From Klebsiella phage K64-1: a DNA stretch of 64,000 nucleotides. Both the position numbers and the translations under genes were made by a program. Below are positions 6,728-63,786 of the stretch, piece after piece. The notes below the pieces were generated by a model. That model saw nothing but the letters and a program-made list of their open reading frames with translations, was not told where the DNA came from and searched no databases. Where the stretch lies: the sequence record AB897757.1; one strand, 5' to 3'. Each line of letters begins with the position of its first letter. Position 1 is the stretch's first letter.

Positions 6728-8255
6728 CACCTACAACACAACGACCGAGGAATCTCATATCAGGTTCCATCGGAACTTGTAGTTTTACTTTATCCAGTTC
6801 AATTGACATATTCTCTACTGCAACATTTTCATAAAACCCATTTGACATAAGTTCTTGTACCTGTACTGACTTTGGTTCATCTACGGTAATGACCAATTCA
6901 TAGTTGATACCATCACTTGAAGGTACCCATGAAGACATATCAGAAATGTTTATTGTTTCGGAACCACTGATGCGTTTCCATTTACCACTGATTTTTTGAA
7001 TTAATGTATTAAAGCTAGGAGAAAAAGCTAACATACCATTTTCACCTAAAGTATTATTGGATGCATCAATAAATGGTGGTCTAAACCCGATCTCTGTTAA
7101 TTTAGTTTCCCCATTATAGCCATCAACCGTCGGATTTTGTGGGAAAAATAAAATTTCAGTATTTTTCCAACGCTGAACTTCTTTCGATGAGGCAGTTGCA
7201 GAAAACTCACCAGTTACCGAACCCCTGTGATATAAACCAGTACTACTATCAGACCATTTACTTGGGTCAATTCCGGGGTTTTCAGTTGGATCATAGGTCT
7301 TGTTGTTAAATGTAATCGCTGGTTTATCAACAGTACCATATGTTGCTGCAAAACGTCCCTCAGCTTCTGAAATACCATCATCATACATTGCATCACCGGT
7401 TCTACGTAAACCATCTAAACCATATAAATCAAGTACGGATTGTACATCGGAAACTGATGTTGGGAATTGTCGTCCATATGAATTTACTAGTTTATTATCA
7501 AATGTAACACTTGTGGCTGCAATACGGGTAGCATATTGACGAAGACTTTGCCATTTAGTACCAGTACTGATGATCCAGTCACTATCACGTAAGCCTGGGT
7601 CATAACTAGCATTACCAACCTCGAATTGTTCTGTTAGATCTGGGTCTGATGTTAATGATATAAGACCTTCATGACCAGTAGTTGGGATTTGATCTACATT
7701 AAATCTTGCATAAGCAGAGGTAACTGATTTAGAACCATTACCATCTGTGGTAAAATAATATTTAATTTCCAACCAGTCACCCTCACCTGATGGGTTGGTT
7801 GGTGTGAATATAACTGGTGATGTTGAAGGATTTGTAGTACTCATGTGAGTAGTAGCTAGATCAACAATACCACGAGTTACGTAATAATGACCTGAATTGG
7901 TTGAGTCCGTTGGTGGTAGATTATCGTAAACCGAAATTTCTGATGGTGGATCTACATCATCGGTATTTGGATTAAAAGTACCTTTATATGTCATACCATT
8001 CAATAATGTATCTGGTAAATTTGCAATTGAAATTTTACCATTAGCATCTAATTGAACAAAACGTCGATATTCTACTGTATCATCTAATAATTGTAATGTA
8101 CCTTCAAAAGCTTCCCATTCACTATTATAACGAATCATTCCCGGACGTTTAATGTCATTTGGTGGATTTTTCAATAGTGCTTTTGGTAATTCCAAGAAGC
8201 CATTAGTACTATCGATAATAACACCAGAATCACCACGTATTCTATATATACTCAT
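6723..8255 (-). CDS. putative tail fibre / receptor-binding protein
   Basis: 510-aa ORF, S/T/N/G-rich, clustered with the collagen-like fibre gene on the same strand; no specific family recognised. Confidence 0.35.
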   Translation of the reverse strand: MSIYRIRGDSGVIIDSTNGFLELPKALLKNPPNDIKRPGMIRYNSEWEAFEGTLQLLDDTVEYRRFVQLDANGKISIANLPDTLLNGMTYKGTFNPNTDDVDPPSEISVYDNLPPTDSTNSGHYYVTRGIVDLATTHMSTTNPSTSPVIFTPTNPSGEGDWLEIKYYFTTDGNGSKSVTSAYARFNVDQIPTTGHEGLISLTSDPDLTEQFEVGNASYDPGLRDSDWIISTGTKWQSLRQYATRIAATSVTFDNKLVNSYGRQFPTSVSDVQSVLDLYGLDGLRRTGDAMYDDGISEAEGRFAATYGTVDKPAITFNNKTYDPTENPGIDPSKWSDSSTGLYHRGSVTGEFSATASSKEVQRWKNTEILFFPQNPTVDGYNGETKLTEIGFRPPFIDASNNTLGENGMLAFSPSFNTLIQKISGKWKRISGSETINISDMSSWVPSSDGINYELVITVDEPKSVQVQELMSNGFYENVAVENMSIELDKVKLQVPMEPDMRFLGRCVVGV

Positions 8256-15620: not shown

Positions 15621-15650
15621 TTGACATTGCAATTTAATTTCTGATATAAT
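15621..15650 (+). promoter_or_regulatory. sigma70-type promoter TTGACA - 18 nt - TGaTATAAT
   Basis: ttgaca 15621-15626, tgatataat 15642-15650; upstream of the ClpA-like gene. Confidence 0.55.
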
Positions 15651-15697: not shown

Positions 15698-16195
15698 ATG
15701 AATCTACAAAAACTATTTAAAGTAAGCGATGATCTGGCAACTTCTCTTGGTCATACATATCTTACTATTGACCATATTAGTGCTACACTTCTTGAAGTTG
15801 ATAGTATTGTAGAACTATTCAATACCATGAATATTGATACAAATAAACTTCACAGTCGTGTGATGAATTTTCTGAAAAGTACTGAATATCCAAATCAACC
15901 GGCTAGTATGTCAGCTAATGGGACTAACAGTAGTTCTTTGTTGGTAAATCGCGTATTCAATGAACTGTCAAAAAAATCAGTTATTGAACAACTTAAACGT
16001 GATGATTTTACAATTGATTCATACTTTGTACTATTTGAATGCTTGTCTTTCCCAAATACAGCAAAGGCGTGTCTCGCACTGAAGCAGCACGTGCATTACA
16101 AAAACATGTGGCGAAAATCGATAGTTCCATCAATCTACAAAGTATTGCTGAAGATCCTAATTCATCAGATAAGAAAGCGACGGCGGGACAAATGA
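15698..16195 (+). CDS. ClpA-like N-terminal domain segment (frame A of a split ClpA-like gene)
   Basis: Residues resemble the Clp N-domain repeat; the frame ends at 16195; it overlaps the AAA+ body ORF, which is in the -1 frame. Confidence 0.5.
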   Translation: MNLQKLFKVSDDLATSLGHTYLTIDHISATLLEVDSIVELFNTMNIDTNKLHSRVMNFLKSTEYPNQPASMSANGTNSSSLLVNRVFNELSKKSVIEQLKRDDFTIDSYFVLFECLSFPNTAKACLALKQHVHYKNMWRKSIVPSIYKVLLKILIHQIRKRRRDK

Positions 16196-17985
16196 ATGCA
16201 ATTAAACAAAAAACTCTAGAAGATTTTACTGTAAACCTGACTAAACTTGCACAGGAAGGTAAACTTGACCCAATGATCGGTCGCCAAAAAGAACTTCAAT
16301 CACTAATTGAAGTAATGGCACGTAAAAACAAAAAGAATGCTATTCTTACTGGTGATGCAGGAGTCGGTAAAACTCAGATCGTCGATGGTTTTGCACAAGC
16401 CATTGCTGATGGTGACGTACCTGACTATCTGAAAGGTGTTGAGGTATTATCTCTTAACGTTTCTGCTGTAACTGCTGGTACAAAATACCGTGGTGAATTC
16501 GAAGAACGTATGGAAGGTATTATTAAAGAACTTAAAAAACGAGAAAATGTAATTTTGTTCATTGATGAAGTACATATTATGATGGGTGCTGGTGGTAGCA
16601 GCACTGGATCTATGGATATGAGCAATATCATGAAACCTGCACTTTCACGTGGTGATATTCGTGTTATCGGTGCAACAACTTATGAGGAATATCGCCAGAA
16701 CATTGAAAAAGATGCTGCATTTTCCCGCCGCTTCACTAAAATTGATGTAGTTGAACCTAGTATTAACGAAACACGTGAAATTATTAATGGTCTGAAAGGT
16801 ACTTATGAAAAATATCATAACGTAACATTCAGTACTGAAACAATTAACTCAATTATTAATCTGAGTTCTAAATTTTTACAAAATAAAAAGTTTCCAGATA
16901 AAGCAATTGATCTGATGGATAGTGCTGCTGCTAAAATTCGTTCAGAAAAACGTTCAGATCTAAAAGTGACGGTACGTGATATTGAAGAAGTTGTGTCCAG
17001 AATCACAAACCTTGATATTAGTGTTATTTCTTGTACTGAAAGTGAACGCATGAATAATCTACCAGATGTTCTACGTTCGCGTGTATTTGGTCAAGATGAA
17101 GCAATCGAAAAATTGGTCGATAACGTTATGGTTGCACGTGCTGGGCTACGTGATAAATCAAGTGTTCAGGGTGCTTTCATGTTTGTTGGACCATCTGGTA
17201 CTGGTAAAACTGAAATCACAAAAGCACTTGCTGAAGCAATGGGTTCTGAGCTAATTCGTTTTGATATGTCAGAGTTTTCGCAAGACCACACTGTATCTAA
17301 ACTTATTGGTTCACCTCCTGGATATGTAGGACATGAAACAGGAAATGGTCAGCTTCTTGATAAAGTTGAACAATTCCCTAATGCAGTACTTCTACTGGAT
17401 GAAATTGAAAAAGCACATCCAAAAGTACTGCTGACATTCCTACAAGTATTGGATGAAGGGCGTTTGACTGGTTCACAAGGAAAAACAGTTTACTTTAATA
17501 ATATTACTGTTATTATGACTACAAACCTTGGAGCAGCAGATTCCAATAAACGTAGTATCGGTGTAAGTACAGTGGATTCTGCACAAGAAAAAGCTATTAA
17601 AGCATTTTTACCACCAGAATTCATCAATCGCATTGATAGTATTGTTAAATTCAATGAACTATCATCAGAAGCAATTGATAGTGTAATTGACAAGTTTATG
17701 GGGGCATTGCGTGAACAAGTTAAAGAACGTGGAATTGAAGTGGTACTGACCAAACGTGCACGAGAATATCTTGCAGAGAATGGTGTTCAGAACGGCATGG
17801 GTGCTCGTCCAATGAAACGTTTGATTGAACAATGCATTCGTGTACCTTTGGCAAAAGAAATGCTTCTAGGCTCTCTGGTGAACGGTGGTAAGGTAACGTT
17901 TGATGTGATTGATGGTAAGATTGCAATTAAACAAAAAGTTAAAAAATCCACAAAGGAAATTGATTCAGCAGAATTAGAGGCGTAA
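16039..17985 (+). CDS. ClpA-like double AAA+ ATPase body (D1+D2), frame B
   Basis: Two Walker A motifs LTGDAGVGKT and FVGPSGTGKTE; no long ClpB-type middle domain; KRSIGVSTVDS...FLPPEFINRID aligns with the E. coli ClpA IGL ClpP-docking loop region. Confidence 0.75.
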   Translation: MLVFPKYSKGVSRTEAARALQKHVAKIDSSINLQSIAEDPNSSDKKATAGQMNAIKQKTLEDFTVNLTKLAQEGKLDPMIGRQKELQSLIEVMARKNKKNAILTGDAGVGKTQIVDGFAQAIADGDVPDYLKGVEVLSLNVSAVTAGTKYRGEFEERMEGIIKELKKRENVILFIDEVHIMMGAGGSSTGSMDMSNIMKPALSRGDIRVIGATTYEEYRQNIEKDAAFSRRFTKIDVVEPSINETREIINGLKGTYEKYHNVTFSTETINSIINLSSKFLQNKKFPDKAIDLMDSAAAKIRSEKRSDLKVTVRDIEEVVSRITNLDISVISCTESERMNNLPDVLRSRVFGQDEAIEKLVDNVMVARAGLRDKSSVQGAFMFVGPSGTGKTEITKALAEAMGSELIRFDMSEFSQDHTVSKLIGSPPGYVGHETGNGQLLDKVEQFPNAVLLLDEIEKAHPKVLLTFLQVLDEGRLTGSQGKTVYFNNITVIMTTNLGAADSNKRSIGVSTVDSAQEKAIKAFLPPEFINRIDSIVKFNELSSEAIDSVIDKFMGALREQVKERGIEVVLTKRAREYLAENGVQNGMGARPMKRLIEQCIRVPLAKEMLLGSLVNGGKVTFDVIDGKIAIKQKVKKSTKEIDSAELEA

Positions 17986-17990
17986 AAACA

Positions 17991-18023
17991 AAAGGAGAGC
18001 ATAAAAGCTCTCCTTTTTTTTAT
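17991..18023. terminator. bidirectional rho-independent terminator
   Basis: ggagagc-ataaaa-gctctcc followed by a T8 run; A-run on the other side. Confidence 0.7.
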
Positions 18024-21000
18024 TATATAACATTTAACAAGTTATTGAGTACCAAACCGTCAATTTTCAATGAATTAGCATACACACTTACATCAATTGG
18101 TTTGTAATAATTTTTATAAACACTAAAATTAAGTTCAACACCAAGATTGATACCAGTGAATGTATATGTTTCACCTTTAGCAAAATAGTGTTCAGCACTA
18201 TACATATCTGAACGAAGGATATTGTTATTATTTCGCACATGAACTTTTTCATATCCAAGTACGATAATATCATCATAACTAGTACTACCAGTAATGATAT
18301 TATCCTTAACACTATATGTACCAACTGAAACTGGCTCCACCACATAAGTGGTATTTTCATTCTCAACTTTAGTAACACTGGTTACTGTACAAGTTGTATC
18401 ACCGATATACACTTTATCTGTTAAATCATATGAGTAAGTCCATCTTACACCATCGAACACAGGTTTAATATCATCGACGTCATATTCATATACAGTAAAC
18501 TCTAAACTTTCTGGAGTTCCAATACGAACCAGTTCATCTAATGTACCAACACCGGTATTTGGCATGAAATATCCACTATCAACCACACCATCAGAAGTTT
18601 CAACTAACTCATTAGAGATTAGCCAAACATCCAAATCTAATGGATCTATTTCATCCGTGTAATCACCATTATTCAAAGAAATATCATAGAATACATCATA
18701 GTCCATAACATCAACTCTGTAATTTCTTATACTTTCATACAACAAATCACCATTGTTATTGAACTCATGGTCTGCAAAACTTCTAATACGAATAACATTT
18801 ATACTTGTTTTTGTATAAGGTTCACCAGTATTATTAGTGGTTAAATTATTAAACTCAAGTTTATTTCCATTTAAATCAACCAAAGAATAAACTCCGTTGT
18901 TAAGCTCAACTTCAAACATAATAGGTCGATCATTCTCTTTGATTTTATCAGTACTGAGAATAAGTTCATGAGTAAAGTTCTGGTATCTGTAATAATCATC
19001 ACCATCTGGGGTAAACACCATAACTTTATCACCACTATTGAGATTACTATTTTTCATCAAGAATTCAGTACTGCTTATAATACTATCAATAGTACTGATA
19101 TAATTATAAGAGTCTTTCTTAATTACTGTGCGGTTTACATAGTTTTGTACCAGACTATATGGAGGAATGCTCACAATAGCTTCTGTACGCTTGTATGGAT
19201 TGAGAACAACAAAACCCTCTATCTGGAATCGACTAAAGTCTTTAATCTGCTGTAGAGATGTAGAATCGTTACTATAACCATCTACTGTAAAACGCATTTG
19301 TGAAATAGCATTAGCACTTGGGTTCAACTCGGAAATATCAATGAAAACTGATTCAGTCAAATCACCTTCGTAGCTCAGTGCGACAGTTTTATATTGAGAT
19401 TCCAAACCTAAATTATCATAAGCATTCATATCATTATAATACTTCTGCCCCTTGATTCCCTCAAGTACAACCATGTAGTCACTGTACATTGGATTATTAT
19501 CATCCATTTCCAGATCATCCATATCAATCTCAACTGCTGTAACTACTGAACCATCAGTAATGAAAAGATCTTCCATATATTCATCAATGCTACGATCATC
19601 AGGAATACTAACATAACTACCGTTAATATTGAATCTAATATATTTTCTCGGGATCATTACAAATGCCTGAATATCCATTGATTTACGATTACTATTCAGA
19701 ATATCCTCTGCATATGCATAAGGATCATCACTGTCTTTATCAAACGTGTTACGAATAGCAGTTAGTACATGGATAGCATCTTTGTAATAACGACCCTGAG
19801 AATCAATATCATATTTGAAACAATAGATACCGTATTCAATTTCCATTACGCTTCTGATGGTTTCTTCATCAGCATCTGGTGTTTCTTCCAAAATAAGTTC
19901 TCTATAATGGGCGAATAAATCCTCACTAATTTCAAAATATCCCATGTTGAAGTCAGAACTTGAACTAAAACCAAAAGGTAATCTCGTATTCGGATTATCA
20001 TTGTAAATTTCACCACTCAGACCACAACCAATGGTATCATGGATTACATCTGAACTCATTGAACTATAAAGTTTTAATCTATTACTCAATGTATTATATT
20101 GTGAATACATTCTAACATCTTGTGTTAAGTTAGAAGTACTATACAATTCAGAAGTGATTCTGTCTAAATCAGAAGTGAAACTTTCAGTTCTTTCAGCATC
20201 ATCAACGTTCAATTTATACCATGCATTGATAGCATCAACTAAATCCAGACTTGTATCAAAATCAGAATATAGTTCAAACATATCAACAGAAATCTGAGTA
20301 TAAATTTCATCTACCTCAACAACTGGTAGTGTATACTTGAAACGCTGGATTTCATAGTACTGTACATTATCATCAGAATTACTTACATACTTAGCATTGT
20401 TCTCTTCCAGACTTGTAACATCATATAAATCACTATCAGGCTGGCATTGAACATTATCAAATTGCATTGAGATATCAATTTCCTGGAATTTTCTATCTGG
20501 GTAAACGAAGTCGTTTGGTATTGAACCAACTACCACCCATTGTCCAGTACTTTCATTATATTCAGCATATTCATGATCCCAAATATCAGATTGTGTTTTA
20601 ACCCAAATTGTACCGTTATATTCATAACCATTTGGATCTAAATCATTACAAACACCATAAACATAATCAGTGTCGGATGTTTTCTGTTCAATTTGAGAAC
20701 GAATTTTAGTCCTGTACGGTTTAACTTCATTGAAATATTCAATAATCTGATTAATCAATTCGTCATTAGTGTAATTTTGTTTAAGTGATTGTTCTAACCC
20801 AACAATATAAATGTATGAAGTTTTGAATACCCAATCAACCACACCCTGTTCAACGTGTACGTATTTAACCATGTCAAATACAATATTACTTTGAGCTAAA
20901 TCGAATGTATTTTTGATTAAATCTAATGCACTTCTTACATTAATTTCCTTGTTGCTTAAAGAACCATCACTGTTATAAACTTCATACCCATCATATAAAG

Positions 21001-23011
21001 ATGAATTAAGAGCGATTGTGCTGTTTTGACGCCCAATAGCATTCCAGAATACAGTATTACGTGATGATGTTTTCACATACATTGTCCATCCATCTGAATC
21101 AGTGATTCGAATAACATCACCAACTTGATAGTTTTTGGTATTAGCTATATCCAGGCTGGCTTCCTGAGTATAATCAGTATTTTCATCATACCCATCACTA
21201 TACCAGTCAGCATATTCCCAGTACTGGGTCATGTCAAGAGAAGTACCAAGTGATTCAACATAATCACTCTGTTTAATCATACTATGTTGTCCTTCACCTA
21301 GACCTTCCAGTGTGATTGTTGATGGATTAGCATCAATACTCTTTGTAGTCATGAATCTTATATAACCATTACTATCGTAGTGGACGAAATATACTGAAGT
21401 TGTATCTAGCGGGGATGGTAATACACCAGTACTACTCAAAATTACTGCATCGTTTTCATCGAATTTATCAAAATCAGTTGAGACAACAAATTCGTTATTG
21501 TATGCCAGAACCCTGAATGTAACTGAATTTTCATTCACCTCAGTAGTTTTAACATTGAAAACTTCACTCATTAATACCGTATCAGTTATGATATTTTGTG
21601 TTTTGTAATAATTATTTGCACTATCTACAAACGTTCTGCGAGCTTCAATCAAATCCATAAACCAGGTTTTAGATGAACCCAACCCTAATTCTACATCAGG
21701 ATAAACAATTTCATTTACTACACCACTCTTCGTGGTTTCGTGTCCTTTCAGAGAATTCCACAGAGAATTCCATATATCTGAATTGAAATTATAGCTATCT
21801 CCTTCTTTACATAGCTGATATTGTTCATGTTTAATAATATCAACACTATCTTCATGATAAGAAACTGTCAAAATGCTGGTATCATCAGTAATTTCATATT
21901 GCATATTACTAAGAATGAATGAATTCTCGTTAATTGGTGCAAACCAAGGAACGTCCAGTAAATGTGGATCTTTAATAATACGTGCAATATCAGTACATGA
22001 TTTACTTCTGGTGTTAATTGGTGGTACATAAATTGTATCTCTTACCCAGAAATAATAATACGTAACATATGAATCAGTTGTTTCATCATACTCAATGAAT
22101 GAAGTATAATTATCCATGATTGCAGTACCAGAAGGTATATACATAGTGTTATTTTTATTATTTTTAGTTTGTTCCTGACAGTATTTGTCCCAATTATATG
22201 GCTGTACTGGAGATTTAACCCACTCAAGAACATTAATATCACTATGTGGTAGCAATCTACCCCAGTTATAACGACGATATTCATTTGTAGCATCTTCATC
22301 AATGTCACCATTCTCATCCAGTACTGGGCGAGTGTAATCCAAATAAAATGCAGTACTGGTGTCCCACCATACTTGACCAACTTTCTCAGAACCCCATGCT
22401 TGAAGAGTTTCTCCATTGCTATTGTACTGAGCAGGGTCTACTGGAGAGATATAAGATACATCTTTCATTGCAGTCCCAGGTAAAACACCATTAATTGGGT
22501 CAAATATATTAAGATATAATTCAGTAATGTTTGTTTTTGAATTATAAGTAGATGGTCTATCAAATAAAGTACTATCTGGAACATCAAAACTGTATTTTTT
22601 ATCAATATATGCCTGACGTTCGGTTGTATCACTGAATCTGGATGTATATTTGTACAGTTTTGGTCTTGTATCTGGATCAGTGAAATTAATTGTGATACTT
22701 GTATCAAACGGAACAACAATTTTAGTTTTATCATCCCCTGCCGTGAAATATTGACTTTCTACTGTTAATGCATCTGGCATAAAATATGTATCATCAACAA
22801 AATAATAATAATCACCATCATCTAATGGAGCTTCGGCATCTAATTGAACAGTACAGTACTGTTCAGCATAAGTATCAGTATTTTCAATTGGAGTAATTGA
22901 TAACATAGATACACCAGTATCAACTAAATCAAAAATGTTCCATTCCTGATTCATATCAACGAACATCCACACTGAATCTGGATTTTCACCATTATTTTTA
23001 ATATAATTCAT
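18023..23011 (-). CDS. giant baseplate / tail-fibre structural protein (1662 aa; gp8-gp12-equivalent region by synteny)
   Basis: Lies on the late minus strand between the gp7-like giant and the terminator; open frame continues upstream to an in-frame TGA at 23108-23110. Confidence 0.45.
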   Translation of the reverse strand: MNYIKNNGENPDSVWMFVDMNQEWNIFDLVDTGVSMLSITPIENTDTYAEQYCTVQLDAEAPLDDGDYYYFVDDTYFMPDALTVESQYFTAGDDKTKIVVPFDTSITINFTDPDTRPKLYKYTSRFSDTTERQAYIDKKYSFDVPDSTLFDRPSTYNSKTNITELYLNIFDPINGVLPGTAMKDVSYISPVDPAQYNSNGETLQAWGSEKVGQVWWDTSTAFYLDYTRPVLDENGDIDEDATNEYRRYNWGRLLPHSDINVLEWVKSPVQPYNWDKYCQEQTKNNKNNTMYIPSGTAIMDNYTSFIEYDETTDSYVTYYYFWVRDTIYVPPINTRSKSCTDIARIIKDPHLLDVPWFAPINENSFILSNMQYEITDDTSILTVSYHEDSVDIIKHEQYQLCKEGDSYNFNSDIWNSLWNSLKGHETTKSGVVNEIVYPDVELGLGSSKTWFMDLIEARRTFVDSANNYYKTQNIITDTVLMSEVFNVKTTEVNENSVTFRVLAYNNEFVVSTDFDKFDENDAVILSSTGVLPSPLDTTSVYFVHYDSNGYIRFMTTKSIDANPSTITLEGLGEGQHSMIKQSDYVESLGTSLDMTQYWEYADWYSDGYDENTDYTQEASLDIANTKNYQVGDVIRITDSDGWTMYVKTSSRNTVFWNAIGRQNSTIALNSSLYDGYEVYNSDGSLSNKEINVRSALDLIKNTFDLAQSNIVFDMVKYVHVEQGVVDWVFKTSYIYIVGLEQSLKQNYTNDELINQIIEYFNEVKPYRTKIRSQIEQKTSDTDYVYGVCNDLDPNGYEYNGTIWVKTQSDIWDHEYAEYNESTGQWVVVGSIPNDFVYPDRKFQEIDISMQFDNVQCQPDSDLYDVTSLEENNAKYVSNSDDNVQYYEIQRFKYTLPVVEVDEIYTQISVDMFELYSDFDTSLDLVDAINAWYKLNVDDAERTESFTSDLDRITSELYSTSNLTQDVRMYSQYNTLSNRLKLYSSMSSDVIHDTIGCGLSGEIYNDNPNTRLPFGFSSSSDFNMGYFEISEDLFAHYRELILEETPDADEETIRSVMEIEYGIYCFKYDIDSQGRYYKDAIHVLTAIRNTFDKDSDDPYAYAEDILNSNRKSMDIQAFVMIPRKYIRFNINGSYVSIPDDRSIDEYMEDLFITDGSVVTAVEIDMDDLEMDDNNPMYSDYMVVLEGIKGQKYYNDMNAYDNLGLESQYKTVALSYEGDLTESVFIDISELNPSANAISQMRFTVDGYSNDSTSLQQIKDFSRFQIEGFVVLNPYKRTEAIVSIPPYSLVQNYVNRTVIKKDSYNYISTIDSIISSTEFLMKNSNLNSGDKVMVFTPDGDDYYRYQNFTHELILSTDKIKENDRPIMFEVELNNGVYSLVDLNGNKLEFNNLTTNNTGEPYTKTSINVIRIRSFADHEFNNNGDLLYESIRNYRVDVMDYDVFYDISLNNGDYTDEIDPLDLDVWLISNELVETSDGVVDSGYFMPNTGVGTLDELVRIGTPESLEFTVYEYDVDDIKPVFDGVRWTYSYDLTDKVYIGDTTCTVTSVTKVENENTTYVVEPVSVGTYSVKDNIITGSTSYDDIIVLGYEKVHVRNNNNILRSDMYSAEHYFAKGETYTFTGINLGVELNFSVYKNYYKPIDVSVYANSLKIDGLVLNNLLNVI

Positions 23012-23107: not shown

Positions 23108-26100
23108 TCAGCGGAATTTACCTTTAGGACGAGTAATCCATCTGGAATCTTCACCTTGTGAACCATAATAAACTATTTCAGTACTACTTGTACTTGTATT
23201 AACATCTTTATTAAACGTAACCAGTTGTGGTTCTTGTTTAAAATCACTGTTAATTAATTGAAATTGTAAATTTTTCTTGGCATTAACGTTTCCATAAGTA
23301 CCAACTTTAAAAGCCCACTCTTGTAGTGCTTTATATTCATCAGTATTATATGATTTAGATACACGAAGAACGCGTTCCATTACCAAATTAGAGCCTTTAT
23401 CTCTAATAAAACCACGATAAAAATCAACACGGTTGGGATTATTAGTGATCATTTGCTGTAAGTAATCACGAGTTTGATATCCAATAACATGAGTACTTAG
23501 ATCATACAGTTGAACATCAGAAACAGGATCATTTGAATCATAATAATGTTGGAAATTAGTAACTAATGTTTCAAATGATGGTAATGTACCAGCTTCAAGA
23601 ATTATAAATCCGGGTGCTTGTAGGCGACCAACCCAGTTATCAGTGATATAACCGTACATTTTCACCAATTCCTGAATAGAACCGAATGTAGGTTGATAAA
23701 TGCTATCACCAAAAATAGTTTTATCATCAAATACCACTGCATGTTCCCATGAACATACACCTAAACGAACCAACGCCATGCGTTTATCGGCATCTTCATT
23801 AACTCTAACAGTGAAAACATTACCAATTCTTGATGTTTCAACTTCATATGGGTAGATACCACTGTTATCATCGTCCAACAGACTCCAGACACCACCATTT
23901 GTTTCACTAATACTTTGTACTGAGCCAAAATAAGTTCCGAATTTGGCATTTTTAGAGCTTGGTGTACATGAAATGTAATCACCAATGGTTAAATCTGTGG
24001 TACTCCATTGTAAAAAGTACTTAGCAATAGTAGACCAGTCCTGTTGTACCCCAGTGTCATCAACATCTTCAAAAATCCATCCATGTTCAACAAGATATTG
24101 ACCATATCCACACAGGAATGTATAAACATCCTGGAATGTGTTAAGAATAGATCCATATTCAAGCGTATCATCTTCTTTCCATTCCATATAATGAACAACA
24201 GTGCGATTTCCTTCAGTTACGGTTACTTTTTTACCATTTTTAACTGGTAATTTATAAGTAAACGTAGCATTAACCAAATCATAACCTTTAATAATATAAT
24301 TACTACCATTGAAAGTGATTTTAACTGCACTAAGAACTTCATTTTTGATATTATTAGAGCGTACCAGTCCGATTGTTTGGTTTTCTTGTGAAATTAAACC
24401 AAACGATTCAGATGTAAATGTTAATTCATTGCTCTTTGTAAATCCACCAAGCTTGTGTGCAATACTGATGTATGAAGTTCTAACTAAATCACCATATTTT
24501 GAAGTAATATTCTTACTTTGATAGGTTAAGTAGTTACTAACAGCCATTTGATAACCAAGAACACGAGTATTATTTTCACCATGAACCACCGTATCTGAAT
24601 TAAAATTCAGTCGAGTTCTGGTTTCTTTGTACTGCAATTGTAAACCACCATTTTTTACAGTTTTTAGTGTATCATTTAGTGTATCCCAGAAATAATTACA
24701 GAATTGTGCTGGTTTTGCACGATATATCTGCATCATTACATCATAACTAAACATTGCGTTATTCATATAGGTGAATTCGTTGTCACCCATATCACCATAA
24801 GACCATGGTGCACTGCGTTCTTTGATCGTACCTTTTACTAAACCAAGAACGTCAGGTTGAATATAATCAACGGTACAAATTTCTTTACCATTAGTTGAAT
24901 ATTCACCTGTTTTAGTAATTACAAATGGTTGAGTACCAAAACGCTTGTACTTATCATGCTGTCCCTTACGATCTCCATATAAAATGGTACCAGTACTGGC
25001 ATCACCTTTAACACCATTAACATCCCAAAGACCACTTGGTACTAATTCACCACTTTCATTAACAACCAATGCTTCATATACATATAAAATGTCATCTTCA
25101 TTTGTGCCTACCTGAACTTCAGTTGGTTCATATTCCTGATTCCACCAGGTTGGACGAACACCAAAGCCAAACATTTCCCATGGATGAGTTGCAGGGCGAT
25201 AAGTCCCGAACTGATCAGTATATATGGCACGCCAAGAACCACGTGCAGGAAAATCGGTAATTACACCATTAACTGTATAATAGGTACCACTATAATTCCA
25301 CGTCATCCAGTTTTGTTGGTCATAATTATGAGTAGTACTGTCAATTCCGTTGGTTGCAATGAAGTTAATATACCCACGTAGTAATAATTCATCACGTTCT
25401 TCTGCACTATACTCAGTATCCCTGTAATATGGTGTTGGAAACAGATCTGAACTATCAAGTTCAGGTTGATAATCTTCATCTTTGAAAGTATTATCAATAC
25501 TGTTATAAATTCTATTCTCAAGTTCATAGATAACATCATCCATTTTATCTACACCGTTAATAACACGATAAGATTTGGTAATTTCACCAGTATGACGAAT
25601 ATTATACGGTACTTGTTTGGATGCAGCAGTCAGGTATACAGTTTTTTCTGGCTTATGTACTTTAAGAACACCCATAAATTGTGGTGTAGGTGGAATAAAA
25701 GTACGAATTGTAGTTGTAGTACTCCCTACGCCATCGTAATAGAACGCAAAAGTAGAATCTTTACCAACATTAATGTTACTCAAAATAGTATCACAAATAT
25801 CACTACTTGAAGTGCTTAAAAATTTACTTGGGTCTTCTTTATACATATTAAGCATGTAGTTTTCAAATCTGTTATTAAAACGAAGATATTCACCTTGTAA
25901 AAACATTAATGCTTCAAAAAGATCAATATCACTATTAGCAGTATGTGCCATTAGTGGAAGTAGTGATCCTTCGTTTTGAATAATTTTAGTACCAACAGCA
26001 TTATCAACTAACCCTTGTTCAAGACGTTCTTCATAATCATTGATATTATCCACGGCACCAGATGTGATATTTTTTTGTACAATTTCCTGAAAATGTAAAG

Positions 26101-27988
26101 TATAATTACTTTGATCAATATAAGAAATATTATCACTATATGGGTTATTTTGTAAATTTACTGGAATTTCATAACTACCAAGATCGGTATCTGGTACTTC
26201 AGTACTACTATAAGTTCTGATTTGAATCACACTTTCAGAGTCCAAATCAACAGAGTCACCAATGGTGATGCTTTGTACTTTACCATTAGACACATTTCTT
26301 GTATAATCTTCAACTACAACACCATTGACCTGAATTTCAATGATATCTGAACTTCCATCAATGACTTTTTGTGCCAGTTCATAACTGCGGTTATACAATT
26401 CACTCTGAATACCTTCAGTGTTTACCATATGCCAGTCATAATAAGTTTCAGATTCTTCTTTGTAGTATTGATAGGTTGCATTGGTTTCAATAACATATGC
26501 ATACATACCATCAATGGCTTGACTGGAAAAGCTTTCCATTTCATATACAGTACTGAACACTCTGTACATATCAGTGCGTTCAACTTGAGGTGTTTGTTTT
26601 ACAAATTGTTTAGAAAATTCAGTACTACGAACCCAGTCAGTTTTTAATACACTATCTTCATCACCAATGATATTGTAATAATAAAATCCAGGGATTTCTT
26701 TAGTTTCACCAGAACTGATGTATTCATAACGAGTACTTTCAATAAAATTTTCGTATATATAATAATTATAATCACCCAATTCTACATTATATCCATAATA
26801 ACTATCAACTTTGTAGTTGTAGTTAATTTTTAGTCCAAACAGAGAAGAACCACTGAAGGTACTTGACGGATATACAGTACTATCTTGTAATTTTACACCA
26901 TTTCGATCATATAACTGGAAAAGAGGGAATGCATTTGTTCCATTCTTTTTCTGAGTTGCAATCCAGTTATGCCCATTCCAGTACATAGTGGTATTTCCAT
27001 AAACTTTACCACTTTTAATTAATACAACATCACCATCAAGTGGTTCACCACTTACACGTTCTGGTGTTTCTTCATCTGGGTCTAATGCTAAACCATAAAC
27101 GCGAGTACCATCCTGCATTTGGTTGATGTATACTTTATAAATTCTGTTATTTTCACCACTGTTACCAATGCTGGTAAAAAGAATACGCATTCCGTCTAAT
27201 GGGATTTGTCCATCAATACGAATACCCTGATTAATATCTTTTTGTACGATATCTTCTGGTTTTAATGAATCACTTAGTAGATCCACCACACCACGGAACT
27301 GTGTACCAAAATTGATTAGTTCGATATCTTTGTTATATTCAATAATTGGTACTTGTGCACGTACAAAACGATTATCATATGATAATTCATCATTCAGTAC
27401 TGAACCATCTGGTAAAGTATCACCAATGGTATACCAGAAGTTTTGTAATGACCATAAGTTTCCGTTTTTAGCATTACGTTGCATTACAACATAATCAGGA
27501 CTAGCGATACCATATTCATTTTCAGTATCCCAAAGATATGAACTAAAATTAATCATTTTATTTGGATTAATTGGTGGAGTCCATGAATAAATTCTTGAAT
27601 TAAACAGTCGGCTTTGATTATCAGTAATTGCACCATAATGATTCATATAAGAAACCAGATCATCATAGAATTCAATACTACGAATACTTTGATCTACATT
27701 ACGGGAGACATAAGCTGGAGATAACTGATATGCTTGGCGTGGTTGTGTTGATTCATTAACGAAAATCTTACCACTCGCTGCTGGAGAACCCATATCACCA
27801 AGATACCCATCAACGATTTTTTGTTCAGTGGGATTAAAGAATTGTTGAATAACATCATCACATACCTTTTGGATATCTTCCAAGCCTTGCATCCATTCTG
27901 GTAATCTCTTAATGAACAACTTTTGTTGTACTGCTTCAGCCGTTTTTGTTGGTTGAAACTTAAAATCATTAGCCATGTTTAGCTCCAT
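23108..27988 (-). CDS. giant baseplate wedge protein (1626 aa; gp7-like by position)
   Basis: Follows the gp6-like gene on the late strand; ends with TGA at 23108-23110; probable true start MANDFKF at 27976 (ggag RBS). Confidence 0.45.
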   Translation of the reverse strand: MELNMANDFKFQPTKTAEAVQQKLFIKRLPEWMQGLEDIQKVCDDVIQQFFNPTEQKIVDGYLGDMGSPAASGKIFVNESTQPRQAYQLSPAYVSRNVDQSIRSIEFYDDLVSYMNHYGAITDNQSRLFNSRIYSWTPPINPNKMINFSSYLWDTENEYGIASPDYVVMQRNAKNGNLWSLQNFWYTIGDTLPDGSVLNDELSYDNRFVRAQVPIIEYNKDIELINFGTQFRGVVDLLSDSLKPEDIVQKDINQGIRIDGQIPLDGMRILFTSIGNSGENNRIYKVYINQMQDGTRVYGLALDPDEETPERVSGEPLDGDVVLIKSGKVYGNTTMYWNGHNWIATQKKNGTNAFPLFQLYDRNGVKLQDSTVYPSSTFSGSSLFGLKINYNYKVDSYYGYNVELGDYNYYIYENFIESTRYEYISSGETKEIPGFYYYNIIGDEDSVLKTDWVRSTEFSKQFVKQTPQVERTDMYRVFSTVYEMESFSSQAIDGMYAYVIETNATYQYYKEESETYYDWHMVNTEGIQSELYNRSYELAQKVIDGSSDIIEIQVNGVVVEDYTRNVSNGKVQSITIGDSVDLDSESVIQIRTYSSTEVPDTDLGSYEIPVNLQNNPYSDNISYIDQSNYTLHFQEIVQKNITSGAVDNINDYEERLEQGLVDNAVGTKIIQNEGSLLPLMAHTANSDIDLFEALMFLQGEYLRFNNRFENYMLNMYKEDPSKFLSTSSSDICDTILSNINVGKDSTFAFYYDGVGSTTTTIRTFIPPTPQFMGVLKVHKPEKTVYLTAASKQVPYNIRHTGEITKSYRVINGVDKMDDVIYELENRIYNSIDNTFKDEDYQPELDSSDLFPTPYYRDTEYSAEERDELLLRGYINFIATNGIDSTTHNYDQQNWMTWNYSGTYYTVNGVITDFPARGSWRAIYTDQFGTYRPATHPWEMFGFGVRPTWWNQEYEPTEVQVGTNEDDILYVYEALVVNESGELVPSGLWDVNGVKGDASTGTILYGDRKGQHDKYKRFGTQPFVITKTGEYSTNGKEICTVDYIQPDVLGLVKGTIKERSAPWSYGDMGDNEFTYMNNAMFSYDVMMQIYRAKPAQFCNYFWDTLNDTLKTVKNGGLQLQYKETRTRLNFNSDTVVHGENNTRVLGYQMAVSNYLTYQSKNITSKYGDLVRTSYISIAHKLGGFTKSNELTFTSESFGLISQENQTIGLVRSNNIKNEVLSAVKITFNGSNYIIKGYDLVNATFTYKLPVKNGKKVTVTEGNRTVVHYMEWKEDDTLEYGSILNTFQDVYTFLCGYGQYLVEHGWIFEDVDDTGVQQDWSTIAKYFLQWSTTDLTIGDYISCTPSSKNAKFGTYFGSVQSISETNGGVWSLLDDDNSGIYPYEVETSRIGNVFTVRVNEDADKRMALVRLGVCSWEHAVVFDDKTIFGDSIYQPTFGSIQELVKMYGYITDNWVGRLQAPGFIILEAGTLPSFETLVTNFQHYYDSNDPVSDVQLYDLSTHVIGYQTRDYLQQMITNNPNRVDFYRGFIRDKGSNLVMERVLRVSKSYNTDEYKALQEWAFKVGTYGNVNAKKNLQFQLINSDFKQEPQLVTFNKDVNTSTSSTEIVYYGSQGEDSRWITRPKGKFR

Positions 27989-54459: not shown

Positions 54460-54765
54460 ATGTCTAATAAACTACTAACTGAATCTCAATGGGCCGCGAC
54501 CAAAGAACGTATTACCGAAGGTCTAAAAGGCAGTCGTAAACGTGTGATGGATATTACTATGGATAACTATCGTCGTGAGCGTGCATTATTTGAATCTGCT
54601 ACTGCTGGTGCTACCACTGCTGGTAACATTGCTTCTGTTAACAAAGTAATTCTACCAATCATGCGTCGTGTATATTGGTGTACAACCAATGACTGGTCCA
54701 TACTGCCAGATTCATACTCTACGTGTTCAATATGCAACCAATGCTCCAGGTGTTGCTGCTGGTGA
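54460..54765 (+). pseudogene. gp23: major capsid protein gp23, N-terminal segment (frame A); the frame is lost after IMRRVY
   Basis: TTAGNIASVNKVILPIMRRVY parallels T4 gp23 AAGQTSGAVTQIGPAVMGMVRRAIP; the remaining residues of this ORF are nonsense (Cys/Trp-rich) before a TGA. Confidence 0.6.
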
Positions 54766-55615
54766 AGAAGCTCTATCTCCATACAAAATCGCCAAATCTT
54801 ATACTGGTGAACTGAATTCTGATAACACTAGCCCACAAGCCGCTCCTACTTCTCAACTAGAAGGTACTATGGGTCGTCAGGTAAATATCAACATTCTACG
54901 TGAAATCGTTGAAGCCAAATCCCGTCGTCTCTCTGCTCGTTGGACTGTTGAATCTATGCAAGATGCACAATCTCAACACGGTGTTGATATTGAAGCTGAA
55001 CTGGTTAACGCAATTGCTCAAGAAATTACTGTAGAAATCGACCAAGAACTACTTTCTCGTCTACGTGCACTACCTGGTGCTCCAGCAGTGACCTATGACC
55101 AAACCAAAGTAACTGGTGTTGCTACTTTTATTGCTGATGAACACGCTTCTCTGGCAATTCTAATCAACCGTCAGGCAAACGAAATTGCTCGTCGTACCAA
55201 ACGTGGTGCAGCTAACTGGGCTGTTGTTTCTCCAGAAGCACTATCTATTATTCAGTCTGCAACTACTTCTAGTTTTGCACGCAGTACTGAAGGTACTTTC
55301 GAAGCACCAACCAACGTTAAATTTGCTGGTACTCTAAATGGTACTATGCGTATCTACGTTGATACCTATGCTTCTGATCTGGAAGATATCCTGATTGGTT
55401 ATAAAGGTGCTAACGAAACTGACGCTGGTGCATTCTATTGCCCATACGTTCCACTGATGGCTACCGGTACTGTAATGGATCCAAATACCTCCGAGCTAGT
55501 GACTTCCTTCCTGACTCGTTACGGTTATCTGGAATTCGTGGATTCATCCTCTTCCTTTGCAAACTCAGCCGATTACTTCAGCAAAATTGCTGTTCGTAAC
55601 GTTACTTTCATGTAA
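54668..55615 (+). CDS. gp23: major capsid protein gp23, main body (frame B, +1 relative to the N-terminal segment)
   Basis: GVQPM, INILREIVEAKSRRLSARWTVESMQDAQSQHGVDIEAELVNAIAQEI, IARRTKRGAANWAVVSPEAL, MRIYVDTYASD...IGYKGANETDAGAFYCPYVPLM match T4 gp23 blocks. Confidence 0.8.
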   Translation: MYIGVQPMTGPYCQIHTLRVQYATNAPGVAAGEEALSPYKIAKSYTGELNSDNTSPQAAPTSQLEGTMGRQVNINILREIVEAKSRRLSARWTVESMQDAQSQHGVDIEAELVNAIAQEITVEIDQELLSRLRALPGAPAVTYDQTKVTGVATFIADEHASLAILINRQANEIARRTKRGAANWAVVSPEALSIIQSATTSSFARSTEGTFEAPTNVKFAGTLNGTMRIYVDTYASDLEDILIGYKGANETDAGAFYCPYVPLMATGTVMDPNTSELVTSFLTRYGYLEFVDSSSSFANSADYFSKIAVRNVTFM

Positions 55616-63423: not shown

Positions 63424-63786
63424 ATGTTTGAAGATGAAATTCAAAGGAATAATGAATTGTATGAAGAGTATAAAAAAATGAAATCTGAAACAAAACAAAA
63501 GAACATTAACATAAGAATTACAGAATGTCTAATGAGTAATACTATCGATTCAGTACTGGCATATGATGCAATAGATGAGGACATTCTAACCAAGAATGGT
63601 TTCGTTAGAACAGGAACTATTTCTTTGTGTAATGAGATTGTTGGTGTTTATAGAAACCCAGTAAATAAAAAAACTTTTACTATAGAAATTGGTGATGATG
63701 TAGAACATCCATCAAATTTCATTGAAAAGGTTAACAATGAAATAATTAAAAAATCAGATAAACACTATCTGTACAACTGGAAATAA
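63424..63786 (+). CDS. hypothetical protein (RegA-sized; candidate only by size and position after gene 43)
   Basis: 120-aa ORF directly after the polymerase; no convincing motif match. Confidence 0.3.
   Translation: MFEDEIQRNNELYEEYKKMKSETKQKNINIRITECLMSNTIDSVLAYDAIDEDILTKNGFVRTGTISLCNEIVGVYRNPVNKKTFTIEIGDDVEHPSNFIEKVNNEIIKKSDKHYLYNWK

Follow-up and report, generated by a model that had tools for sequence, protein, structure and literature searches.

Klebsiella phage K64-1 (record AB897757.1) carries a clpA-like gene which, as deposited, is spread over two overlapping open reading frames (ORFs) on the plus strand, and we report here an analysis of this gene within the stretch of 64,000 nucleotides (nt) in which it lies (hereafter the window; all positions are those of this stretch). 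A preliminary description, made from the sequence alone, had interpreted the locus as a ClpA-like double-AAA+ unfoldase whose full-length form is produced by a programmed -1 ribosomal frameshift. The unfoldase and the two-frame layout are borne out, with the ORF coordinates as first described, an overlap of 157 nt and ORF2 in the -1 frame relative to ORF1. The frameshift is not, and the frame break is caused by the loss of 22 nt at a point 6 nt past the heptamer at which slippage had been proposed. The features of the locus are as follows.

15698-16195, plus strand: ORF1, 165 amino acids (aa), with a Pfam Clp_N match
16039-17985, plus strand: ORF2, 648 aa, the D1+D2 AAA+ body
15698-16063, plus strand: Clp N-domain part of the clpA-like gene, still in the ancestral frame (codons 1-122, collinear with the same codons of RaK2)
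16051-16057, plus strand: C_CCA_AAT heptamer in the X_XXY_YYZ register of ORF1, reading ttC CCA AAT
16063/16064, plus strand: junction of the 22-nt deletion, at which CTAGAAGCTGCGTTAAAAGAAG is missing; this sequence is present in all relatives
16064-16195, plus strand: out-of-frame tail of ORF1, 43 non-native codons followed by the TGA stop at 16193-16195
16066-17985, plus strand: linker, D1, D2 and D2-small, completing the clpA-like gene in the -1 frame (equivalent to RaK2 codons 131-769)
16192-17985, plus strand: N-truncated product of 597 aa as annotated in RefSeq, its ATG overlapping the ORF1 stop (ATGA)
17557-17565, plus strand: IGV tripeptide where ClpA has its IGL ClpP-docking loop, aligned to E. 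coli ClpA SIGL

Domain and motif content of the ClpA-like protein

ORF1 matches PF02861 Clp_N over its residues 11-59 (25.4 bits against a cutoff of 20.7; the RaK2 protein gives 23.8 bits), and the Pfam matches of ORF2 are AAA, AAA_lid_9, AAA_2 and ClpB_D2-small. Both Walker A motifs are intact (GDAGVGKT at 16351-16374 in D1 and GPSGTGKT at 17188-17211 in D2), as are the Walker B motifs (ILFIDEVH in D1, LLLDEIEKA in D2) and the pore loops (KYRG in D1, GYVG in D2). The ClpA model TIGR02639 is the top NCBIfam family, with 760.1 bits over profile positions 4-733 of 734; the scores fall below the equivalog cut-offs of both TIGR02639 (993.15 bits) and NF008263 (646.7 bits against 1350), and the intact protein thus scored is a divergent ClpA-like relative and not a ClpA equivalog. 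ClpB, ClpC and Hsp104 align only as two separate blocks, so that the coiled-coil middle domain by which ClpB and ClpC differ from ClpA is absent here.

The preliminary description had also pointed to KRSIGV (17548-17565) as a putative ClpP-docking loop, and this segment aligns residue by residue with the KSIGL (ERKSIGL) docking loop of E. coli ClpA. The orthologues read SIGV, SIGM, SLGM or AVGM at this position, and that of phage Munch reads SMNM; the IGV/IGM/LGM/VGM pattern would be compatible with docking on a ClpP ring. By homology the protein would thread proteins through its pore, and it would probably dock on host ClpP, a partnership suggested by the loop. Most likely the true gene encodes, as in RaK2, a single ClpA-like unfoldase of 769 aa with a Clp N-domain, D1 and D2 AAA+ rings and an IGV loop.

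A 22-nt deletion breaks the reading frame

The region is 97-99% identical to that of the Alcyoneusvirus Klebsiella jumbo phages RaK2, KP13-7, Muenster, RCIP0023, phiKp_21, W12-3 and OU509535, and K64-1 is itself a RaK2-like jumbo phage of this genus, only distantly T4-like and not strictly the T4-like phage that it had been supposed to be. A single coding sequence of 2310 nt (769 aa) is annotated for the gene in RaK2, KP13-7, phiKp_21, RCIP0023 and Muenster, and the same single open frame is found in the unannotated OU509535 and W12-3 sequences and in a Logan contig from SRR27235262. In MAFFT alignments K64-1 differs around the frame break by one clean 22-nt gap and one substitution (T>A). A reading of the two as a single event was considered and rejected: BLAST had split the gap into eight pieces, and with MAFFT it resolved into the clean gap plus the substitution.

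As 22 equals 21 plus 1, everything downstream of 16063 falls into the -1 frame. The N-terminal 122 residues are identical to those of RaK2, the part in the -1 frame shares 99.8% amino-acid identity with RaK2 residues 130-769, and in the comparison with the orthologues ORF1 shows no similarity past codon 122. The deleted codons 123-130 encode LEAALKEE within the block FVLFECLSFPNTALEAALKEEGVSR, which is the counterpart of a helix in the second repeat of the E. coli ClpA N-domain and is conserved from Klebsiella phages to Cronobacter and Serratia phages, even in orthologues that are only ~40% identical over the N-terminal 230 residues. The preliminary description had placed the frame switch at the heptamer, which does lie within the interval that keeps homology on both sides (16039-16063); the exact change of frame is at 16063/16064 and not at the heptamer itself. 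Its fallback, an indel in the assembly, came close to the answer, the lesion being the 22-nt deletion after 16063 and not a homopolymer indel in the ttt/ccc/aaa run.

Intact forms of the gene are widespread. Residues 1-230 are recovered as a single tblastn piece across the junction in 76 of the 77 phage records that carry the gene, the exception being the record of Escherichia phage CMSTMSU, which is marked UNVERIFIED and is fragmented throughout. The hosts of these 77 phages include Escherichia, Salmonella, Erwinia, Yersinia, Cronobacter, Pectobacterium, Serratia, Xanthomonas, Vibrio and Agrobacterium, so that the gene is not the rarity for a phage of this kind that it had first been taken for. 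It has already been described as highly conserved in RaK2-like phages (PMC6102473), and a role as translocases, or as helpers in assembly, has been put forward for the ClpA and ClpX AAA+ chaperones of jumbo phages (PMC7824862). Among the relatives, variation in the gene falls almost wholly at third codon positions, a sign of strong purifying selection.

The junction is confined to the K64-1 record. The 22-mer spanning it had no second occurrence in the viral, metagenome and genome contig collections searched, which therefore give the deletion no independent support. Beyond the deletion, the gene carries only three window-unique changes, all of them synonymous, and shows no further decay. RefSeq protein YP_010842962.1, named “ATP-dependent protease [Klebsiella phage K64-1]”, is an exact match to the 597-aa product from the ATG at 16192; exact look-ups of the 165-, 648- and 597-aa products in a gene-position index gave no match.

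The heptamer and the case for recoding

The observation behind the proposed frameshift was sound: cccaaat at 16051-16057 does stand in the X_XXY_YYZ register of ORF1. A -1 slip at C_CCA_AAU, aided by a hairpin at 16067-16092, would yield a near-full-length protein of 762 aa and set a ratio between it and the N-domain fragment. The heptamer lies inside the only interval in which a shift keeps homology on both sides, and a small imperfect hairpin begins 9 nt downstream. Nevertheless, we consider programmed or compensatory recoding of this kind highly improbable. In all eight close relatives the gene is a single ORF and the site is the non-slippery CCCTAAT; K64-1 alone reads CCCAAAT, the heptamer having been created by a window-unique synonymous T>A substitution (CCT>CCA) at 16054, 10 nt from the deletion. 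The preliminary description had itself named uninterrupted orthologues without a conserved heptamer as the finding that would refute recoding, and this is what the comparison shows, no orthologue having kept either the heptamer or the two-frame layout. A second heptamer, T_TTC_CCA, adjoins C_CCA_AAT, and the relatives also carry it, as T_TTC_CCT.

Motifs of this form are, moreover, common by chance. The long ORFs of the window hold 100 in-frame X_XXY_YYZ heptamers in 18,003 codons (0.0056 per codon, or about one per 180), from which ~0.3 would be expected in the 52-codon overlap. The E. coli heptamer assay of Sharma et al. (2014, PMC4066793) further indicates that mixed purine/pyrimidine A-site codons such as AAU/AAY shift poorly, that motifs with mixed X/Z classes are among the poorer shifters, and that in the absence of a stimulator shifting amounts to only ~0.3% even for the best of them; on this evidence C_CCA_AAU, with its heterogeneous AAU codon in the A site and its heterogeneous C/A pair at X and Z, would be expected to shift poorly.

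There is no stimulatory structure either. For the RNA of 16058-16140, which includes the GC-rich palindromic stretch noted in the preliminary description, the minimum free energy is -11.7 kcal/mol, a value equalled or bettered by 179 of 200 shuffled sequences (z = +1.17), and synonymous differences in the relatives at 16068, 16077 and 16089 break three of the predicted pairs. No Shine-Dalgarno stimulator was identified upstream, and Rfam returned no relevant element, giving only sub-threshold small-RNA matches over the terminator hairpin described below. Finally, the product of the slip would carry NYSKG in place of NTALEAALKEEG, and with the conserved N-domain helix lost its N-domain would be damaged. 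C_CCA_AAT is a chance motif arising from a neighbouring substitution, with recoding not involved. An in-register slippery heptamer beside a frame break is, more generally, weak evidence until orthologues have been compared.

Further deletions in the window

The window was aligned in full to RaK2 (99.3% identity), and the deletions were checked against KP13-7, RCIP0023 and OU509535. Two further deletions proved to be unique to the K64-1 record.

23109/23110, minus strand: second window-unique deletion, 15 nt (CTGAACGCATCGGGA), the junction making a TGA on the minus strand
54673/54674, plus strand: third window-unique deletion, 26 nt (ATGCCAACCGTTATCGCTAACGAAAT), which frameshifts the major capsid protein gene (~54460-55615)

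The 15-nt deletion splits the gene of a giant virion protein, intact at 3322-3326 aa in RaK2, KP13-7 and RCIP0023, into ORFs at 23108-27988 and 18023-23011 (1626 and 1662 aa, respectively). The 26-nt deletion falls in a conserved segment of the capsid protein (...LPIMRRV[MPTVIANEI]IGVQPMTGP...), and the RefSeq major capsid protein of K64-1, YP_010843009.1, consists of 308 aa from the ATG at 54689, as compared to 393 aa in RaK2. Microhomology or direct repeats, a sign of replication slippage, are absent at all three deletion junctions of the window. The remainder is in good order: the window holds 51 RaK2 genes, 47 of them unbroken and with 97-100% amino-acid identity, the four broken homologues being those of the clpA-like gene, the giant virion protein, the capsid protein and ORF101.

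In the small ORF101 homologue a 1-nt deletion in an A-run at 63667 alters, relative to RaK2, the last five residues, and may be either a homopolymer error or real variation. At 7296-7299 paired -1/+1 indels, 3 nt apart, compensate one another locally in the ORF060w homologue, which remains intact at 97.5% amino-acid identity.

Sequence error or true deletion

No phage could form plaques with its major capsid protein frameshifted, so that the 26-nt deletion can almost certainly be put down to an error of sequence or assembly. The clpA-like deletion bears the same signature as that in the capsid gene, in that it is window-unique, falls in the range of 15-26 nt, lacks microhomology and breaks a conserved gene. 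On this basis we infer that it, too, is an error of the deposited K64-1 sequence, introduced at assembly or consensus building, and we hold this explanation to be probable with good confidence. The sibling deletions, in pointing to errors in the record, also weigh against recoding.

Several observations sit less comfortably with an error. A deletion of 22 nt, unlike a homopolymer indel, is not one of the classic errors, and the clpA-like gene, maybe dispensable where the capsid gene is not, might have suffered a true deletion in the K64-1 stock that was sequenced. The frameshifted ORF1 ends in ATGA over a Met codon in the linker between the N-domain and D1, and with a true deletion a functional N-less protein could plausibly arise there. 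The proximity of the heptamer-creating substitution to the deletion is an unexplained coincidence, and one that also fits a low-quality stretch or one complex event. Taken as a whole, a true deletion in K64-1 strikes us as improbable, while recoding in any form is scarcely to be expected.

Were the deletion real and recent, the most reasonable biological rival to a sequence error is one in which translation of ORF1 stops at the TGA at 16193-16195 and reinitiates at the ATG at 16192, giving an N-less unfoldase of 597 aa. The ATGA overlap is preceded, 3 nt upstream, by a weak GGGA Shine-Dalgarno sequence; the ATG encodes Met173 of the full protein, which in the alignment to E. coli ClpA stands 8 residues ahead of the counterpart of residue 169; D1, D2 and every motif are undamaged, and the unique changes are all synonymous; and RefSeq annotates exactly this product. 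ClpA65 is a natural product of E. coli clpA, made from an internal start at Met169, and the N-less K64-1 form would resemble it. Such a form would still hexamerise and dock on ClpP, losing N-domain-dependent adaptor and substrate binding. We nonetheless regard reinitiation after a real deletion as unlikely, given that the sibling deletions in the major capsid and giant virion proteins are not plausibly real in a propagating phage, that residues 1-230 are 100% conserved in all eight close records, which argues that the N-domain is needed, and that the junction was found nowhere else in the collections searched.

Alternatively, a real deletion might have inactivated the gene, leaving a young pseudogene in a laboratory stock with a fragment of 165 aa, of which 122 are native and 43 out of frame. 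Loss of accessory genes on passage is frequent, and the frame break, the junk tail of ORF1 and the want of a Shine-Dalgarno sequence before the ATG at 16039 would all suit such a history. The argument from the sibling deletions applies equally here, however, and the gene has been kept, in synteny, by at least 76 phages from many genera, which argues that its loss is not commonly tolerated. The gene also shows none of the additional decay that inactivation might bring, although with only three unique changes this is a test of low power. We give a pseudogene slightly less credence than reinitiation. It is also conceivable, at the very limit of what we would entertain, that the deletion is real and that the T>A change at 16054 was selected as a suppressor, providing a trickle of -1 rescue alongside N-less reinitiation; if true, a jumbo phage would here have newly evolved a compensatory recoding site.

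A sequence error, the explanation that we favor, has consequences of its own. In these 64 kilobases at least three short deletions disrupt the K64-1 record and, with it, the RefSeq proteins that derive from the record, and the resulting flawed models (a 597-aa “ATP-dependent protease”, a 308-aa “major capsid protein” and a split giant virion protein) have spread in truncated form into protein databases, where they could mislead comparative, structural or recoding screens. As the clpA-like gene of RaK2-like jumbo phages has already been annotated and discussed, and recoding is unsupported, the practical value of this analysis is that of a curation flag on the K64-1 record.

Promoter, terminator and position of the gene

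The preliminary description had assigned the gene its own sigma-70 promoter and terminator within a minus-strand structural block, and both elements are readily recognized.

15621-15650, plus strand: predicted sigma-70-like promoter, TTGACA-18 nt-TATAAT with an upstream TG, a 12/12 match to consensus
17990-18017, both strands: bidirectional hairpin terminator, an 11-bp stem with T runs on both strands

The terminator sits between the clpA-like gene and the convergent gene of the giant virion protein, and the clpA-like gene is probably transcribed from its own sigma-70-type promoter. The 121Q and GAP32 orthologues have comparable extended -10 promoters upstream and equivalent terminator hairpins. 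The order of tail-sheath stabilizer, structural gene, clpA-like gene (plus strand) and convergent giant virion protein gene (minus strand) is conserved, and the clpA-like slot is shared by Asteriusvirus, Mimasvirus, Eneladusvirus, Salmonella phage Munch and one Vibrio phage.

At the orthologous loci compared, from Klebsiella to Vibrio jumbo phages, the late block on the minus strand holds throughout a gene on the plus strand that has a sigma-70-like promoter.

The gene had been called a moron. With synteny, promoters and terminators conserved across genera (Asteriusvirus, Mimasvirus, Eneladusvirus and the Vibrio phage), this status was rejected: the clpA-like gene is an old, conserved and separately transcribed gene of the RaK2-like clade.

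Comparison with known systems

The nearest counterparts of the K64-1 gene are RaK2 ORF069/gp466 (YP_007007224.1), 121Q gp581, annotated as “ClpA-like”, and GAP32_229, which are the same gene in the same position. In contrast to RaK2 and these orthologues, the K64-1 record alone is without the 22 nt, hence its two ORFs, and alone has the CCT>CCA change. Errors in a deposited sequence have a more extreme example in Escherichia phage CMSTMSU (MH494197, UNVERIFIED_ORG; 319040-324691), where the clpA-like gene and its neighbors are chopped into many small coding sequences; the K64-1 window, unlike that record, has only three discrete deletions of 15-26 nt and one homopolymer indel among 51 genes.

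The A_AAA_AAG sites of dnaX and of IS911/IS3 likewise combine an in-register X_XXY_YYZ heptamer with a downstream ORF in the -1 frame. Compared to these, the K64-1 heptamer is of a weak type, without a stimulator and without conservation in orthologues, and the layout around it is explained by the deletion.

With E. coli ClpA (PDB 1KSF, 6W1Z and others) the intact protein gives one continuous alignment over residues 20-734 (E = 2.7e-177), and the two have in common an N-domain, the D1 and D2 rings, Walker A and B motifs, KYRG and GYVG pore loops, a D2-small domain and the lack of a middle domain. The phage protein differs from E. coli ClpA in being phage-encoded, in having IGV in place of IGL, and in a divergent N-domain of which only the first Clp_N repeat is detected.

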